Source: a virus. From it: 5,875 nt of DNA. This document shows positions 1 to 5,875 of the stretch, in pieces. Each line of letters begins with the position of its first letter. The stretch's first letter is position 1. Below the pieces are notes generated by a model that was not told the DNA's origin, searched no databases, and saw only the letters and a program-made list of their open reading frames with translations. The translations under genes and the position numbers were made by a program. The DNA lies in the UHGV virus genome UHGV-0260700. One strand, written 5' to 3'.

Positions 1-206
1 GGTTTCATGGGCAGAGCTTTGATCTTAATAAAACGCAAGTTCAGACTCACCGTGCGAGATTACGAAAAATCGGTATTGATATTGCTCAAAAATGCAATAT
101 TGCTAAGTTCTCTCCGGTTATCATGAAAGAAAGCCGCGAAATTCATGTTTCACAATGCGTTATTCCAGACTGGTATATTAAACCTTCTCATTTACGTGTA
201 GCTTAA
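1..206 (+). CDS. 3' end of replication initiator gene (gII, with nested gX), partial, start outside window
   Basis: Frame starting at position 3 is open to TAA at 204..206 (67 codons, ends ...DWYIKPSHLRVA). Assigned by synteny only, immediately upstream of the gV-position gene; I did not recognise the sequence itself. Confidence 0.55.
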   Translation, partial: FHGQSFDLNKTQVQTHRARLRKIGIDIAQKCNIAKFSPVIMKESREIHVSQCVIPDWYIKPSHLRVA

Positions 207-222
207 AACAGGAATATTAATT

Positions 223-540
223 ATGTCTCACTACGGATTATTTGTTAAAGGTAAAATGCTTGGTTCGCGCCAGCGCAATAAGATGAATAGTGATTTAGTT
301 TATAATGAAATTGGCGTCGGCATGGAAAAGCCTGATGGTTTTGGCGGCACGAAAACAGAACAATTAATTATTCGTGTTTCTTCTTCTCTCGTTAAGGCTG
401 GCGTAATGAATCAGGCTAATAGCCTTATTGGTAAACTGGTTCAGGTTCCTGTCTATGCTAAAGCATGGTCTTTTGACGGAAAGGATGGCATTACATACAA
501 CCTTTCTAATGATGGTGGTATTAGCGAAATAAAGGTTTGA
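223..540 (+). CDS. Putative ssDNA-binding protein at the gV position (105 aa)
   Basis: ORF 223..540 with AGGA 9 nt upstream of ATG; sits between the replication gene end and gVII/gIX/gVIII as gV does in Ff phages. Longer than Ff gVp (87 aa) and no similarity to M13 or IKe gVp that I can see; function is by position only. Confidence 0.55.
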   Translation: MSHYGLFVKGKMLGSRQRNKMNSDLVYNEIGVGMEKPDGFGGTKTEQLIIRVSSSLVKAGVMNQANSLIGKLVQVPVYAKAWSFDGKDGITYNLSNDGGISEIKV

Positions 541-542
541 CT

Positions 543-629
543 ATGGATGATGTTATTCAGGTTTTGATAGCGTCTGGCATCGTTATTTCTTTTGGCCTCG
601 GCGCGATTACTGCGGGGGTCTTTCGTTAA
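543..629 (+). CDS. VII: Minor coat protein pVII-like (28 aa, MDDVIQVLIASGIVISFGLGAITAGVFR)
   Basis: Not in the ORF track (too short). ATG at 543 three nt after the gV stop, AAGG upstream; small hydrophobic peptide like M13 pVII (33 aa); stop TAA 627..629 overlaps the next start. Confidence 0.6.
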   Translation: MDDVIQVLIASGIVISFGLGAITAGVFR

Positions 630-724
630 TGTATATCGTTTATTTCTTCGGGGCTTATACCTTTGGTTTTGCCCTTTTCTATGCGGTCGGTTCATTTAAA
701 TCATTTTCTGACCGATTAATGTAA
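629..724 (+). CDS. IX: Minor coat protein pIX-like (31 aa, MYIVYFFGAYTFGFALFYAVGSFKSFSDRLM)
   Basis: Not in the ORF track. ATG 629..631 overlaps the gVII stop as TAATG; hydrophobic peptide ending ...DRLM, compare M13 pIX ...FTRLMETSS; stop TAA 722..724. Confidence 0.6.
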   Translation: MYIVYFFGAYTFGFALFYAVGSFKSFSDRLM

Positions 725-743
725 CCTTAATGGAGTTATTTCT

Positions 744-986
744 ATGAAAATTCTGTCTACTGTTAAATCTAAAGTTGCTCTTGCTTCAACTGCGCTTTTT
801 GTTTCTGCAAGTTCTTTTGCGGCTGACGGCGCTACAGGCGGTACTGATTATGCAGGTCAGGCAATGGACGCTTTGTTGACTCAGGCAAATGATCTCATTG
901 GTAAAGTATGGCCTGTTGTTGTTGCTGTAGTTGGCGCAGGCCTGGCTATTCGTCTTTTTAAAAAGTTCTCTTCCAAAGCAGTTTGA
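744..986 (+). CDS. VIII: Major coat protein pVIII precursor (80 aa)
   Basis: GGAG 8 nt upstream of ATG; signal peptide ending SFA followed by an acidic amphipathic N-terminus, a hydrophobic core (VWPVVVAVVGAGLAI) and a basic C-terminus RLFKKFSSKAV, the last matching the IKe coat protein C-terminus and close to M13 (KLFKKFTSKAS). Confidence 0.92.
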   Translation: MKILSTVKSKVALASTALFVSASSFAADGATGGTDYAGQAMDALLTQANDLIGKVWPVVVAVVGAGLAIRLFKKFSSKAV

Positions 987-1001
987 TTTCCATTTTACAC
1001 A

Positions 1002-1020
1002 GGGGCAGATTCTGCCCCTT
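1002..1020 (+). terminator. Hairpin terminator after gVIII
   Basis: GGGGCA(1002..1007) / TGCCCC(1013..1018) stem with loop GATTC, followed by TT; the same position as the strong terminator after gene VIII in Ff phages. The T-tract is short. Confidence 0.45.
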
Positions 1021-1037
1021 CATCTAAGCGGGTCATT

Positions 1038-2252
1038 ATGAAACGCAAATTATTAGCCCTTTTATTTATTATTTCTCCAGCTTCTCATGCTGCTATATGG
1101 GATAGTTTAAGCCAAAGCACTATGGAGGTTGATGTTTGGTCTGTAAGAAACGAGACCACACATAAACAATATATAAATTCTGATATGCTTGCTTCTGGTT
1201 GTTCTCAAGCAAAAGAAAAGGCTAACGATTTTTTCACGAGAACCAAATCAATTTTTCAGGATGTGTATCCGCCAAATGCTGAGTATAGATTAGTCCTTGA
1301 TGATTCTTGTTCGTTTAGTTTGCCACCGGGCGAAAAAGATAGCTCTTGGAGAATAGAGACTACAATTAATGCAGATGTTCAAGTTTCAGTTCCTGATGAA
1401 ACATCACCCGAACCTACACCAGAAGAAGTTTGTCAGACTAAACAACCTGAAGATGGTGTATTTAATAATGTTTTTTCTGATTCTGGCAATCGTTATATCA
1501 ATTATGATGGTTGTGAGTATGAAGCAACAGGGGTAATTGTTTGTCAAAGTGACGGTACTGTTTGTGCTGCTACGTGGAAACCAACTGGGCGTGTTTCAGA
1601 TGGTTCACATAATTCATCATCACCTGCCGATGATAATAATGATAATGGTTCAGAAAATGGTGGGTCAGAGGGTGGGGATGATGGTTCTGGCGGTGGTAAC
1701 AATAATTCAGGGGGGAGTTCTGGCGGCTCTTCATTAAGTAAGCAGGATATGATTGACGCAGTTAACTCCGGTGTATCTGGGGCTTCGTCTAATGTTGCTG
1801 ATGAGATAAGAAAGAAACTCTCTGAGCCTGACACGAGCTTTCAGGATAAAGAACATGCTGACGCGCAAAAATCTAAATACCTAAGTGATATAACTGATTC
1901 CCTTAACAATATTACACGTGGTGCTGGACGTTATGCAGATCCATCCCGTGGTGATTATTATGGGCAAGGTGATTCTGCTTTAGATAGTGCTACAAGCCTT
2001 GCAGAAAGCAACCTGGGTATTTCTAAAGATTCCAATGGGATTTGGGATTTATTTTTAAATGAAACTAATGCCTTGCCAAATGGTGATGGTTGTTCTGATT
2101 TTATTATGTTTCCCGGAGAAATTTACCAGATAGATATTCAATGCGATAAGTTGCAGTCAATTAAAGATGCACTTTCATGGGTGTTTTACTGCATGACATT
2201 TTGGTATGTCTTTACTTCATTAACATCCTTGCTTAGAAAAGGGAGTGAATAA
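1038..2252 (+). CDS. III: Minor coat / adsorption protein pIII (404 aa)
   Basis: Signal peptide [18 protein letters not shown]; internal motif [34 protein letters not shown] resembling the M13 N1 (TolA-binding) motif DRYANYEGCLWNATGVVVCTGDETQCYGTWVPIG; Gly/Ser/Asn/Asp linker; C-terminus [22 protein letters not shown]...[24 protein letters not shown] resembling the M13 pIII C-terminus. Confidence 0.92.
1590..1727 (+). repeat. Low-complexity Gly/Ser/Asn/Asp-rich linker region inside gIII
   Basis: Residues about 185..230 of pIII ([44 protein letters not shown]) encoded by repetitive ggt/ggc/aat/gat-rich DNA; this produces the artefactual ORFs on both strands in the track. Confidence 0.6.
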
Positions 2253-2593
2253 TGCCGTTCCTATTGGGTATACCTGCATTGCTTAGATTTCTTATCGGTC
2301 TTGTTCCATTATCCCTTGGATATATTGCAAGTTTCTTAGCTCGCTTGGCGACTAAAACAGGAATAATTGCCTTTGCTCTGGTTACGTTAATCACATCTAC
2401 GGTCTTGTTGTTAGTTCAATATTTATCAGAGATTACTTTTAGTAGCCTTCCTGCTGACTTTTCTCATTTAATAGCATCTGTATTACCTGATCATTTTCAT
2501 GCCTGCGTAAATGTCATTATGGTTACTCGAATTAGTGTATTGATTTTCGATTTAAAAGAAAAATTTCTTGATTATGCAAACAGGGTGATTTAA
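2252..2593 (+). CDS. VI: Minor coat protein pVI (113 aa)
   Basis: Start overlaps the gIII stop (TAATG). [17 protein letters not shown]... aligns with M13 pVI MPVLLGIPLLLRFLGFLL... over its length. Confidence 0.85.
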   Translation: MPFLLGIPALLRFLIGLVPLSLGYIASFLARLATKTGIIAFALVTLITSTVLLLVQYLSEITFSSLPADFSHLIASVLPDHFHACVNVIMVTRISVLIFDLKEKFLDYANRVI

Positions 2594-3688
2594 ATGGCGG
2601 TTCATGTAGTAACAGGTAAATTAGGCTCAGGCAAGACACTTGTTAGTGTTTCCAGAATACAGGAGAGACTTGCTAAGGGTTGTCCTGTTGCCACTAATCT
2701 TGACCTTAAATTGCATAATATGCCTATGGTTGGGCGTTATGCGAAAAAAACGCGCGTTATTCGCGTTCCTGACAAACCTTCATTAAATGATTTGCTGGCT
2801 ATTGGCATTGGAAACACATCTTACGATGAATCCCGTAATGGCCTCCTTGTACTTGATGAATGTGGTACTTGGTTTAATTCCCGCTCATGGGGTGATAAAG
2901 ACAGACAACCTGTTATTGACTGGTTTTTACATGCCAGAAAATTAGGCTGGGATATTATATTTTTGATTCAGGATATTTCGATAATGGATAAGCAAGCTCG
3001 TTTGGCGCTTGCTGAGCATGTTGTTTATTGTCGCCGTTCAGATAAATTAAACATTCCTTTTGTTGGCTCCATTATGAATTTGGTTTCAGGGGCACGATTT
3101 TCTTTACCAAAGGTACACTTTGGCATTGTCAAATATGGTGATAATGTTAATTCAATCACTGTTGATAAATGGATATATACAGGAAAATCTCTTTATTCTG
3201 CTTACAATACCAAACAAGCGTTCACAGATAATTATCCTCATGGCGCATTTTCGCTTTTGCCACCATTTATCACGCACGGTCAATTTTCTGTTCACAGAGG
3301 ATTTAATTATTATATGCGCCTCACTAAAATTTATTTTCGCAAATCGAACCGTCTTATATTAATGCTTTCTTTTTTGGCGCTGGGGCTTGGGCTTGGTTTC
3401 TGGCTCCAGTCTGGAAAGAATGTTGATGAAATCTCAGCTATTAAATCTGCTTATGCTGAACAGGCGAGGGCGGTAACGCCTGATTCGTCCAGTGACTTAC
3501 CCCGACTTTCTATTAATTCTTTTTCACAACTTGGCTTTGACGTTTCCGTTACGTTTGTTGATGCTAAAGGTATGAAATATCAGTATTTTGATTTGATTAA
3601 AGATGGTTATTCCGTTGATATTAAAGATGCCTGTCGTATTGTTATTAGAAAAGGTCGTTATTTACAGACTGTTACCTGTCAGGAGTAA
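2594..3688 (+). CDS. I: Assembly protein pI (Zot-like ATPase, 364 aa)
   Basis: ATG directly follows the gVI stop (TAAATG). N-terminus MAVHVVTGKLGSGKTLVSV with Walker A GKLGSGKT, then LLVLDECGTWFN and WFLHARKLGWDIIFL, all near-identical to M13 pI; C-terminal membrane segment present. Confidence 0.95.
   Translation: MAVHVVTGKLGSGKTLVSVSRIQERLAKGCPVATNLDLKLHNMPMVGRYAKKTRVIRVPDKPSLNDLLAIGIGNTSYDESRNGLLVLDECGTWFNSRSWGDKDRQPVIDWFLHARKLGWDIIFLIQDISIMDKQARLALAEHVVYCRRSDKLNIPFVGSIMNLVSGARFSLPKVHFGIVKYGDNVNSITVDKWIYTGKSLYSAYNTKQAFTDNYPHGAFSLLPPFITHGQFSVHRGFNYYMRLTKIYFRKSNRLILMLSFLALGLGLGFWLQSGKNVDEISAIKSAYAEQARAVTPDSSSDLPRLSINSFSQLGFDVSVTFVDAKGMKYQYFDLIKDGYSVDIKDACRIVIRKGRYLQTVTCQE
3314..3688 (+). CDS. 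XI: Putative pXI, in-frame internal initiation product of gI (124 aa)
   Basis: In-frame ATG at 3314 (MRLTKIYFRKSNRLILMLSFLALG...) just before the membrane segment, corresponding to the M13 pXI start (MKLTKIYLKKFSRVL...); GAGG about 13 nt upstream. Inferred by analogy only. Confidence 0.5.
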   Translation: MRLTKIYFRKSNRLILMLSFLALGLGLGFWLQSGKNVDEISAIKSAYAEQARAVTPDSSSDLPRLSINSFSQLGFDVSVTFVDAKGMKYQYFDLIKDGYSVDIKDACRIVIRKGRYLQTVTCQE

Positions 3689-3695
3689 TATTATT

Positions 3696-4961
3696 ATGCG
3701 CTCTGTTATTGTTGCTTTTTTATTTGCCTGTTCATTCTGCGTTTCTGCTGAAACTGTTAATTTAAATAATTCATCTGTTCGCTCATTTGTTCAGTGGTAT
3801 TCTTCAAAAACTGGCAAGCCTGTTATTGTTAATCCTGATGTTAAAGGAAACGTAACCGTATTTAATGCTGATGTTAATCCAACAAATATTGATGATTTCT
3901 TTAAGTCTGTTCTGAATGCTAACGGGTTTGTCATGCTTTCTGGCAATCCTGCGGTAGTCTCTTTGCCGTCTAAATTACCTTCACAGATGGTTTCGGGTTC
4001 CGATGATTCTGATAACCAGTCTTATGATACTTTTCCTTCTGAGCCATCTTACCAGCCAGTACCTGTGGCGCTTACGGTCAGAAATTTTAAGCTGACAAAA
4101 GTTAGATCGTCCGATGTTCAGCAACTGGTTAAAATTTATCTTGATTCTAATGGCGGTGGTAATGTCGTGGATTATCCAGGCAATAACTCGCTGATTGTTT
4201 CTGCGCCTGACGAGCTGCTGCCGGTTCTGTCCGATTTTATCAATTCTGTGGATGTTGCCCGTGACCAAGTATTGATTCAGTCGCTGATGTTTGAAACCAG
4301 CCTATCCGATGGTGTTGATTTGTCGTTTGCTGCGGGTTCTGCGTCTGGCCATAAGGTGGCGGGGGGCTTTAATACTTCTGCGCTCGGCAGTGCGCTTTCC
4401 ACGGCTGGCGGCTCTTTTGGTATTTTTGATGGTAACGTACTGGCTTTGTCTCTGCGTGCCGTTCAGAGCAATTCACGCTCTAAGGTGATTTCAACGCCGC
4501 GCATCCTTACTCAGTCCGGTCAGACGGGTTACATTTCTGTAGGTAAGAACGTGCCGTTTATCACCGGAAAGGTAACGGGCGAATCTGCCGGGGTAAATAA
4601 TCCGTTCCAGACTATCGAACGTCATGATGTGGGTGTTTCTCTCAAGGTAACGCCTGTTGTCATGGGTAACGGGCAATTAGTTCTGACTATCGACACTCGC
4701 GCCGATTCAATCAGCAATGATGACCAGGCATCCGATATTATTACTAATCAGCGCCAGATTCAGACTACTGTTCAGATTAAGGATGGTCAGACATTGTTGC
4801 TTGGTGGTCTTATTGATTCATCTTCCAGTAATGCTGACCGTTCAGTGCCTTTTATCAGTAAAATTCCTCTTATCGGCTGGCTTTTCACGAGTAAGGCTGA
4901 CAGCAATGAGCAGCGCATCATGTATGTTCTCCTGACCGCCCATATCATTCGCGCGCTGTAA
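3696..4961 (+). CDS. IV: Secretin pIV, outer-membrane export channel (421 aa)
   Basis: AGGAG 10 nt upstream of ATG 3696. Signal peptide MRSVIVAFLFACSFCVSA; strong similarity to M13 pIV throughout (VPFITGKVTGESAGVNNPFQTIER, DGQTLLLGGL, VPFISKIPLIGWLF). The track ORF from 3603 extends upstream into gI and is not the real start. Confidence 0.95.
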   Translation: MRSVIVAFLFACSFCVSAETVNLNNSSVRSFVQWYSSKTGKPVIVNPDVKGNVTVFNADVNPTNIDDFFKSVLNANGFVMLSGNPAVVSLPSKLPSQMVSGSDDSDNQSYDTFPSEPSYQPVPVALTVRNFKLTKVRSSDVQQLVKIYLDSNGGGNVVDYPGNNSLIVSAPDELLPVLSDFINSVDVARDQVLIQSLMFETSLSDGVDLSFAAGSASGHKVAGGFNTSALGSALSTAGGSFGIFDGNVLALSLRAVQSNSRSKVISTPRILTQSGQTGYISVGKNVPFITGKVTGESAGVNNPFQTIERHDVGVSLKVTPVVMGNGQLVLTIDTRADSISNDDQASDIITNQRQIQTTVQIKDGQTLLLGGLIDSSSSNADRSVPFISKIPLIGWLFTSKADSNEQRIMYVLLTAHIIRAL

Positions 4962-4965
4962 TGGG

Positions 4966-4999
4966 TTGCGGGATGGGTGCGTTAAGCCCCGTCCCGTAA
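4966..4999 (+). other. Imperfect hairpin immediately after gIV; candidate packaging signal and/or gIV terminator
   Basis: Arms 4969..4977 (cgggatggg) and 4988..4996 (cccgtcccg) pair with one T-G mismatch, loop about 10 nt; occupies the position of hairpin A (packaging signal) in the Ff intergenic region but is much shorter. Confidence 0.4.
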
Positions 5000-5039
5000 A
5001 CCATGAAGCGGCATCGTGTTTTCACCGTCTGTTTGTATT

Positions 5040-5220
5040 CTTTTACGCTTTTCTTCCTGTCTGCGTTCTCTGTGGCCTGATTCGTCCAGCAGAATGGCGG
5101 GGGTTCCCTTTAGGGTTCCGCTATTGTGCTTGACGACACGTTGCAAGATAACCTTATTGCGGGGTGATGGTTCACGCAGTGGGCCATCGCCCTGTAAAGC
5201 AGGTTTTTGTTTTTTGGTGT
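5040..5220 (+). other. Intergenic-region segment homologous to the Ff minus-strand replication origin
   Basis: 5099..5120 GGGGGTTCCCTTTAGGGTTCCG versus f1 GGGGGCTCCCTTTAGGGTTCCG; 5162..5194 GGGTGATGGTTCACGCAGTGGGCCATCGCCCTG versus f1 GGGTGATGGTTCACGTAGTGGGCCATCGCCCTG (one mismatch), followed by GGTTTTT. f1 sequence recalled from memory, not computed. Confidence 0.7.
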
Positions 5221-5252
5221 TACGTGGTCTGATACTGCGGGGATTTCCGAGG

Positions 5253-5270
5253 ATGCGCACTGGTGCGCAT
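5253..5270. repeat. Perfect 8-bp inverted repeat with 2-nt spacer overlapping the XerC arm of dif
   Basis: ATGCGCAC (5253..5260), spacer TG, GTGCGCAT (5263..5270); the arms are exact reverse complements. Confidence 0.8.
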
Positions 5271-5289
5271 AATGTATATTATGTTAAAT
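5262..5289. other. dif: dif chromosome-dimer resolution site (XerC/XerD target), prophage right attachment junction
   Basis: GGTGCGCATAATGTATATTATGTTAAAT is identical to the canonical 28-bp Escherichia coli dif (XerC arm GGTGCGCATAA, spacer TGTATA, XerD arm TTATGTTAAAT). Phage-like sequence ends here and the following DNA has host character. Confidence 0.85.
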
Positions 5290-5484
5290 TGAATTTATGA
5301 CGCCCAATACAGGCTTACTCCCTTGACTCATAATGCATCCCTCGCCTTTTCTGCACGCCTTCCATCGTGCCCTGTGTGAATTCTGCAAACTGTTGGCGGT
5401 TATCCTGCGTCAGATTTCACGTAGCGCACGCATTAAAAACCCGGCCACTGTGACCGGATAAGCCGACGGGACCTGCGTTTTTCA

Positions 5485-5875
5485 CTATCTGGCGGCAATT
5501 ACCGCATCTGCAATTTCCACAAAACCAGCACCTCCCGGGCCACGGGTAATCCACTGCGGAGGTTTCGGGATTTGATCAAGGTAATCTGATACCGTGCTCA
5601 CTCCAACCGTATGTTCAAAGAATGAAAACATCGGCGCATCATTCGTCGAGTCGCCGCTATACAATACGGCAGAACGTTCGGCATCAATGTCGAGATCGTA
5701 AAAATCCCTGAGCACTCGTCGGGCCATAGATAACTTGTCATATTCTCCAGACCAGCCAAGAATCCAGAGATTGTTTACGGTGGTTGTAGCACCTGCTTGC
5801 GTCAATGCGTTAAGTATTAATGAACACTGATGGGCTTCTGGCGGTTTAGCAAAGGCAATGGACGTCATCCTGAAA
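5485..5875 (-). CDS. HAD-superfamily hydrolase (Cof-type phosphatase-like), C-terminal part; start lies beyond the window end
   Basis: Minus-strand ORF ending at TAG (5485..5487), open to the window edge; contains the HAD motif-IV-like YSGDSTNDAPMF. Codon usage and GC differ from the phage genes. Confidence 0.65.
   Translation of the reverse strand, partial: FRMTSIAFAKPPEAHQCSLILNALTQAGATTTVNNLWILGWSGEYDKLSMARRVLRDFYDLDIDAERSAVLYSGDSTNDAPMFSFFEHTVGVSTVSDYLDQIPKPPQWITRGPGGAGFVEIADAVIAAR

Follow-up and report, generated by a model that had tools for sequence, protein, structure and literature searches.

The right-hand end of a dif-integrated filamentous prophage joins an Ff/IKe-type minus-strand origin, assigned by homology, to a CTX-type attachment site

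The viral DNA UHGV-0260700 was analysed as a stretch of 5,875 nt (the window), which holds one end of a filamentous prophage and the adjoining host DNA. The 300 nt between the last phage gene, gene IV, and the host dif site (4962-5261) are non-coding, and 5261 is the final base on the phage side. We estimate a probability of roughly three in four that this segment forms the non-coding right end of an integrative filamentous phage of 7,058 nt at the host dif, a phage with a morphogenesis module like that of IKe/I2-2, a replication module of the If1 type and an attachment site of the CTX type. The segment is a mosaic: a packaging hairpin of the IKe type is followed by a minus-strand origin cassette of the Ff/IKe type and then by an attachment hairpin of the CTX type, in a phage that encodes an If1-type replication module. 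All functional statements are based on homology, folding and comparative distribution. The following features were assigned, all on the plus strand:

4961-5004: hairpin resembling the packaging (morphogenetic) signal of IKe, possibly also the terminator of gene IV (single-stranded DNA fold and alignment to IKe)
5082-5136: equivalent of minus-strand origin hairpin B (single-stranded DNA fold and consensus structure)
5152-5203: equivalent of minus-strand origin hairpin C (BLASTN match to f1, alignment and structure)
5209-5250: spacer between the minus-strand origin and the attachment site (shuffle test and promoter scan)
5251-5261: GGATGCGCACT, an inverted half-site of 11 nt that resembles a XerC arm (sequence and fold)
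5262-5289: perfect 28-bp dif, GGTGCGCATAATGTATATTATGTTAAAT, the right attachment site (attR)
5262-5272, 5273-5278 and 5279-5289: within this rebuilt dif, the phage-derived XerC arm, the host-derived central region and the host-derived XerD arm (sequence and junctions)

Full copies of the phage were obtained by an exact look-up of the pIII protein of the window. The same phage, 99.9% identical over window positions 1-5289, was present with different host flanks in four loci, as single copies in L160, L163 and L165 and as two copies in tandem in L168. The repeat unit of the tandem is 7,058 nt, which is the length of the circular genome, and the complete intergenic region was readable at L168 6867-8053. 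On the virion strand, gene IV is followed by the packaging hairpin, the minus-strand origin, about 50 nt of spacer, the phage attachment site (attP), a leftward open reading frame (ORF) of 88 aa, a candidate plus-strand origin, a second leftward ORF of 62 aa, the promoter region and gene II. In the integrated copies, the remainder of the attachment hairpin, the two leftward ORFs, the candidate plus-strand origin and the gene II promoter lie beyond the left attachment site (attL). Placed from these copies, attL, the candidate origin, the promoter and the 5' part of gene II are all to the left of the window. An exact search of IMG/VR with the phage-side junction gave no match.

At the tandem junction of L168 the attachment site reads ...GGATGCGCACT GGTGCGCATAA TGTGTGACTCG TTATGTTGAAA AGGCCGCTGCG-loop-CGCAGCGGCCT CTTTAGCATAA CGTCA TTATGCGCATT.... 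Its arms, GGTGCGCATAA-11 nt-TTATGTTGAAA and the inverted AATGCGCATAA-5 nt-TTATGCTAAAG, make up two inverted dif-like sites. As a single strand (L168 7140-7275) they fold into one long hairpin of -40.5 kcal/mol (z-score -8.0), forked into a XerC-arm duplex, a bubble of 11 and 5 nt and an imperfect XerD-arm duplex. The window contains the XerC arm and the preceding 11-nt half-site of this structure. The half-site stands back to back with the XerC arm in a 7-bp palindrome, ATGCGCA-CTGG-TGCGCAT, that crosses the phage/dif boundary (5251-5270), and it lengthens the base of the attP hairpin in single-stranded DNA. A related GCGCACT precedes attP in the loci L107 and L108.

The junctions of the integrated copies showed where the strands were joined. 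At attL, the host XerC arm is followed by TGT and then by the long (11-nt) spacer of the phage and the hairpin, whereas at attR the phage XerC arm is followed by the host TGTATA and the XerD arm. In L160 and L165, attL (about 7167-7177) carried the host arm GGTACGCATAA and attR (14225-14235) the phage arm GGTGCGCATAA, and this swap places the crossover after the XerC arm. The features of CTX-type integration are present: inverted dif-like sites that fold in the plus strand, a dif rebuilt at one end and a long-spacer site at the other. CTXφ attP (DQ012295) is built alike: AGTGCGTATTA-12 nt-TTATGTTGAGG faces an inverted arm whose spacer measures 7 nt, where the present phage has 11 and 5 nt. A folded attP of the CTXφ style is a substrate for XerC-mediated single-strand integration, in which one strand is exchanged and replication resolves the product (PMC4439123, PMC4246890), and YpfΦ has paired inverted sites of the same kind (PMC4266046). 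The attachment hairpin was not seen in the original prediction, and it explains the arrangement of the region. As a side observation, hosts whose dif carries the XerC arm GGTACGCATAA are left with the phage version GGTGCGCATAA in the functional dif at attR, so that one base of the host dif is rewritten.

Integration could alternatively proceed through the double-stranded replicative form, as in VGJ- or TLC-type phages, and would then be reversible by XerCD. In favour of this route, dif is matched exactly by the XerC arm and the first 3 central bases, and a weak XerD-like arm can be read at 6-bp spacing. In the duplex attP, however, the arms are 11 bp apart instead of the 6 in dif. A second inverted dif-like site follows about 60 nt downstream and gives the -40.5 kcal/mol hairpin (z -8), which is kept on both arms in the relatives; the layout copies the CTXφ attP, and the tandem copies keep the long-spacer junction. 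We consider the duplex route very improbable and prefer single-strand integration of the CTX type.

The minus-strand origin was identified by BLASTN of 4962-5261 against 50,697 phage records, in which the matches were confined to inoviruses of the Ff and IKe groups. Positions 5098-5208 were 79-80% identical to f1/M13/fd 5640-5750 (E 1e-17), and 5053/5056-5219 matched IKe 6305-6465 and the Erwinia PEar phages. The IKe match spans both stem-loops that are annotated as minus-strand origin (IKe 6333-6438). A 33-nt core in hairpin C, GGGTGATGGTTCACGCAGTGGGCCATCGCCCTG at 5162-5194, differs from f1 by one base, and this base of the window is the sole variation of the core in an alignment of six sequences (window, f1, IKe, PEar1, L103 and L105). 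The consensus fold of the same six sequences retained hairpins B and C with 41 pairs, 8 of which had changed on both sides; several of these compensatory changes lie in hairpin B of the window. When the whole region was folded as single-stranded DNA (z -4.8), hairpins formed at 4961-5004, at 5082-5136 and around 5152-5203. The near-identical f1 minus-origin motifs named by the original prediction were thus borne out by both the BLASTN search and the fold. The position on the plus strand, downstream of gene IV and the packaging hairpin, is that of Ff and IKe. In Ff phages the host RNA polymerase treats the two origin hairpins as a single-strand promoter and makes the primer for complementary-strand synthesis. 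By homology, structure and position, 5082-5208 would be a minus-strand origin of the Ff/IKe type, presumably primed by RNA polymerase.

Hairpins of this kind (window 5092-5208) also occur in plasmids (L181 2501-2602; L182 831-926). A match of about 80% was observed in E. coli plasmids of the IncFII type (60-68 kb), where it falls inside a 'repA4' pseudogene some 470-900 bp downstream of repA, and a match of 82% in RepL plasmids of 2.75 kb. The Ff-type hairpins look like a single-strand initiation module that is common to phages and plasmids.

Upstream of the origin, the short hairpin that had been predicted at the place of the packaging signal was recovered at 4961-5004 with -16.1 kcal/mol and a z-score of -6.1. 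It aligns with the IKe stem-loop annotated 'morphogenetic signal' (IKe 6141-6196) and with the corresponding hairpin of the relatives, which identifies it as IKe-type rather than f1-type.

The relatives of the phage showed how the region is composed. In 338 complete E. coli genomes they are about 90% identical at the DNA level over window positions 210-4989 and keep the hairpin region as far as about 4989-5008. Between gene IV and dif they have about 740 bp unrelated to the Ff-type origin, which include an ORF of 103 aa and a non-coding, structured stretch of another kind. None of 5,426 complete E. coli genomes had the Ff-like intergenic region, and the same was true of the IMG/VR and GTDB loci. 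The idea of an Ff intergenic region that had lost its plus-strand origin therefore gave way to that of a mosaic, since the relatives are 90% identical through gene IV and the hairpin and then continue with the unrelated segment.

No close relative has the Ff-like segment, and all evidently replicate without it; this, together with the lack of a recognisable function in the flank 5209-5250, would also fit an inert remnant from recombination with an Ff/IKe-like phage. We regard this as hardly probable. The two hairpins are undamaged, a single base separates the core from that of f1, and the changes in hairpin B are compensatory, unlike random decay. At least five different chromosomal contexts contain the phage with 99.9% identity, so that it was recently mobile, and the segment fills exactly the slot between packaging hairpin and attP in which the relatives have another structured non-coding segment. 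A minus-strand origin remains the preferred reading of 5082-5208.

The plus-strand origin that follows directly in Ff is not present on this side of dif. As predicted, the Ff similarity stops after GGTTTTT, at 5208. The local alignment of 5209-5250 to known plus-origin regions was no better than that of dinucleotide shuffles, of which 1778 of 2000 for f1 and 1355 of 2000 for IKe scored at least as high as the real sequence; no promoter-like site was found in 5209-5250 either. The f1 nick hairpin GTTCTTTAATAGTGGACTC, correctly reported as missing before dif, had no match in the window at up to 3 mismatches. In the 21-kb locus with two phage copies, the Ff nick hairpin GAGTCCAC-GTTCTTTAATA-GTGGACTC gave a chance-level match only. 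A three-way MAFFT alignment had set ACGTGGTCTGATACTGCGG under f1 ACGTTCTTTAATAGTGGAC, as if a decayed f1 nick site were left in 5209-5261, and the local-alignment shuffle test showed this to be chance.

The f1-type nick site and gene II protein-binding repeats had been expected at the left prophage end. No f1-type nick motif was found anywhere in the 7,058-nt phage, and such a site was never to be expected, since the replication protein pII is of the If1 type and not of the Ff/IKe type. The complete pII has 371 aa and is 73% identical to If1 pII and 51-57% identical to the replication proteins (Reps) of Alteromonas phage phiAFP1 and several oral inoviruses. It had no BLAST similarity to the pII of fd, PEar or IKe, and only the Pfam G2P domains are common to both types (N-terminal 24 bits, C-terminal 91 bits).

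Within the full intergenic region, the relatives have conserved two non-coding blocks, the attP hairpin and an element of about 55 nt (L168 7653-7710), which lies about 1.26 kb left of the window start as placed from L168. It consists of three hairpins. H1 is CCGC-GAA-GCGG. H2, GTTCGGG-GTTCTGTGACA-CCCGAAC, has a 7-bp stem and an 11-nt loop and is almost invariant. H3 is an inverted repeat 4 bases past H2 that varies in sequence among the phages and keeps its symmetry; at four of its pairs, both partners have changed in 3-5 of 12 sequences. The layout of H2 and H3 is that of the f1 hairpins D and E, and in the GTTCTGTTACA variant 8 of the 11 loop bases equal those of the f1 loop GTTCTTTAATA.

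The H2 motif was detected in 25 of the 32 loci with an If1-type pII. The other seven comprise three cut contigs, a compensated variant (L069) and three loci whose pII is only 38-49% identical (L064, L071 and L072). The contigs L109, L114 and L118 were uninformative as candidates for a true absence, because they end where the neighbouring leftward ORF has its stop codon. No H2 motif was found in the 8 loci with an Ff/IKe-type Rep or in the 7 with RstA only, and it was absent from 20 of 21 I2-2-type and 19 of 20 GPA-type loci. In the relatives with an I2-2-type Rep the element is intact in L080, H2 is cleanly deleted in L098 and L082, and the rest do not have it; there it looks vestigial. The phages phiAFP1, Dulem 53/55 and D_HF2_144, which have an If1-type pII, carry the element as well. 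It is always located just 3' of a leftward regulator-like ORF and upstream of the Rep gene. In Ig-1 of CTXφ, at the same relative position, RstA nicks a hairpin loop (PMC4439123, PMC8265649). The linkage to If1-type pII, the layout like that of f1 D and E and the position like that of CTXφ Ig-1 suggest that the three-hairpin element is probably the plus-strand origin. The predicted location of attP between the two origins was upheld in one part: the full copies show the minus-strand origin separated from the rest of the replication region, and the identity of the plus-strand origin on the other side is the probable one just given.

Several points weigh against the overall reading. The full left end was read from copies in other assemblies, and the window's own prophage may be solitary or tandem. 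Use of the Ff-type origin by this phage is proposed from homology, and catalysis by XerC alone from the resemblance to CTXφ. The three-hairpin element was found once beside an I2-2-type Rep (L080) and once beside a Phage_GPA-type Rep in a Vibrio record. One would not expect this of a nick site specific to its Rep, and it would suit a priming site that depends on the host. CTG, the start triplet of primase, is also present in the H2 loop.

The element might accordingly be a second, host-dependent origin for the complementary strand, of the primase or PriA type, with the nick site elsewhere; the split of the origins by integration would then be unproven. Its occurrence with three Rep families and its near identity across Enterobacterales, Alteromonas, Vibrio and oral inoviruses would fit a conserved host enzyme. 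The stems of H1 and H3 keep their pairing by compensatory changes, which points to a single-strand structure, H1 is a very stable GCGAAGC mini-hairpin, CTG stands in the H2 loop, and in If1 the element lies about 200 nt past gene IV, in the slot of the Ff minus-strand origin. On the other hand, the linkage to If1-type pII is near-perfect although the intervening genes are shuffled, and the element is decayed or lost in relatives with an I2-2-type Rep that have the same post-gene IV region as the If1-type relatives that retain it. In architecture and in its 11-nt loop it is similar to the nick hairpin of f1, with which the GTTCTGTTACA variant has 8 of the 11 loop bases in common. Its sequence does not resemble the G4 complementary-strand origin, and the likeness went no further than GC-rich hairpins whose loops are small and purine-rich. 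As for the 442 copies on plasmids, these are remnants of prophages in which the attP hairpin is present as well, and are not independent priming sites. A priming site seems unlikely to us, and the plus-strand origin is the reading we retain.

The plasmids in question, 442 mostly conjugative enterobacterial plasmids (392 predicted conjugative), match H1-H2. They had been considered as a sign that the element is a single-strand initiation site of plasmids, and were rejected as independent evidence because they carry the attP remainder too. One plasmid was examined, pECOS88 (L173, NC_011747.1 116207-122262). It matches at 1933-2003 and 3001-3056, with the attP hairpin remainder about 1 kb away and a gene of the STM4504 family, and the homology ends inside H3. 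What pECOS88 carries is therefore a left-end remnant from this family of phages, which suggests a past Xer-mediated integration into a plasmid site.

A hybrid replication module was observed in V. cholerae O139, downstream of a pre-CTX prophage (L174, AF416590.1, 3100-5728). A CTX-type attP and ig-1 (95% to the canonical sequence, up to 3734) are joined there to an H1-H2-H3-like element (3751-3810), a different helix-turn-helix repressor gene and a Phage_GPA-type Rep in place of rstA. We rejected this match in a CTXφ record as the mapped origin of CTXφ, as the homology to canonical ig-1 ends 17 nt before it and the neighbouring Rep is of the GPA type. In the If1-like contig L114 (95-98% identical to If1), a segment at 6440-6690 replaces If1 4933-5118; it has iteron-like repeats, three direct copies of GGTGGAACAAATCGCCG and two of AAAGGTGGGG(A/T)G(C/T)TATGCCG(T/C)G. 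Around the TTGACA...TATAAA promoter-like pair of the gene II promoter region (L168 7934-8053) we found repeated AGTTTCTNAGAA / TTTCTTAGAAAC motifs, which are probably operators for one of the two leftward ORFs. Neither these ORFs nor the 103-aa ORF of the relatives matched a Pfam family.

From these data the life cycle can be outlined in conditional terms. The packaged plus strand would present the packaging hairpin first, then the minus-strand origin, with attP immediately 3'. On entry, the strand would either be primed at the minus-strand origin and converted to the replicative form, or the folded attP would recombine with dif. XerC would exchange one pair of strands with dif just past the XerC arm, and replication would resolve the junction. 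Integration would open the circle at attP and join the phage XerC arm to the central region and XerD arm of the host, so that a perfect dif arises at 5262-5289; the remaining part of the attP hairpin would come to lie about 7 kb away at attL, followed by the two leftward ORFs, the plus-strand origin and gene II. In the integrated form, the minus-strand origin would be the last phage feature ahead of dif and the plus-strand origin would lie near the far left end. A solitary prophage could start rolling-circle replication and not terminate it; synthesis would run through the window into host DNA and meet no second origin. Complete genomes with a restored attP would be expected only from tandem copies, as in L168. 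Release of the genome that depends on a tandem arrangement is the published behaviour of CTXφ (PMC8265649, PMC4246890).

A further, joint reading links two parts and is offered tentatively, as it is rather doubtful that both hold. The invariant hairpin, a 7-bp stem with the 11-nt loop GTTCTGT(G/T)ACA, as nick site and the covarying repeat as determinant of Rep specificity would be a so far undescribed plus-strand origin of the entire If1-type pII lineage, and the location of attP about 50 nt 3' of the minus-strand origin would be functional. Complementary-strand synthesis would start beside attP and move away from it, so that attP would be the last part to become double-stranded and XerCD would have the maximal time for integration.

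The phage was then compared with the known systems. It is like Ff and IKe in having a packaging hairpin and then two origin hairpins after gene IV, with an identity to f1 of about 80% (111 nt) and to IKe of 73% (about 170 nt). It differs in that their plus-strand origin follows directly, whereas here the attP hairpin stands in its place and the Rep is not of their type. With CTXφ it shares the forked attP of inverted dif-like sites with unequal spacers and the dif restored at attR (PMC4246890, PMC4266046, PMC8265649), as well as a candidate plus-origin region and a leftward regulator gene beside attL, upstream of the Rep; a tandem copy was observed in L168, next to single copies in L160, L163 and L165. 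Unlike CTXφ, it has IKe-like morphogenesis genes, including a secretin of its own, an If1-type pII (G2P) and not RstA, and an Ff-type minus-strand origin beside attP. YpfΦ and CUS-1Φ are listed as enterobacterial members of the CTX type (PMC4246890, PMC4266046).

If1 has, besides the 73% identical pII, the three-hairpin element in its major intergenic region (5035-5101), beside a leftward ORF, but no match to the attP hairpin region and no Ff-type minus-strand origin. The UPΦ viruses (Shapiro and Putonti 2020) are dif-integrated IKe/I2-2-like prophages of Enterobacterales, often in tandem, with gII and gV resembling those of YpfΦ (PMC7307601). Their description gives no analysis of attP or origins, and the words 'attP' and 'hairpin' are absent from its text (PMC7307601). 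The present phage has the same IKe/I2-2-like core genes in Ff order, the integration at dif and leftward ORFs by the left junction. UPΦ901, compared by its description, has two hypothetical genes in the region corresponding to the IKe intergenic region, in contrast to the 300 nt with no credible gene and an Ff-type origin here. The phage belongs to the UPΦ group or sits next to it, with a swapped-in Ff-type minus-strand origin. It is another member of the known CTX-type integrating group and is distinguished by this origin and by the lack of a gene between gene IV and attP.

The remainder of the window is in accord with a filamentous phage of this type. The genes follow the Ff order: the 3' end of gene II, then V, VII, IX, VIII, III, VI, I and IV. 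Those at its ends are:

1-206, plus strand: 3' end of gene II, encoding If1-type pII (ORF list and comparison with the full phage copies)
3696-4961, plus strand: gene IV (secretin), the last phage gene (ORF list and homology to gene IV of IKe, PEar and f1)

Pfam Secretin families are recorded on the identical gene IV in L160-L168. ORFs of 55, 92 and 94 aa within 4962-5261 were set aside as spurious, given the homology of this DNA to origin sequence that is non-coding. No Rfam family was matched in the whole window, and a promoter scan of 4900-5400 found no promoter; two 'terminator-like' matches in it correspond to a stem ahead of a T-run and to the junction palindrome. To the right of dif follows unrelated host DNA with a gene for a HAD-IIB hydrolase on the minus strand, which matched a single 'E. 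coli' record only (96%). In another locus (L159 14825-21215), a second, unrelated filamentous prophage with a Rep_trans-type Rep, DUF2523 and Zot lies directly right of a UPΦ-like prophage, so that two inoviruses are stacked at one dif.

The analysis reveals no new mechanism. It provides exact prophage boundaries and a usable model for a widespread group of enterobacterial prophages, in which a lone copy should not release phage and a tandem should, and it supplies a testable plus-origin candidate for replication proteins of the If1 type. In conclusion, the single-strand signals of filamentous phages, namely the packaging hairpin, the minus-strand origin, the attachment hairpin and the plus-strand origin, behave as separate cassettes that are swapped between Ff/IKe phages, which do not integrate, and prophages that do so at dif.

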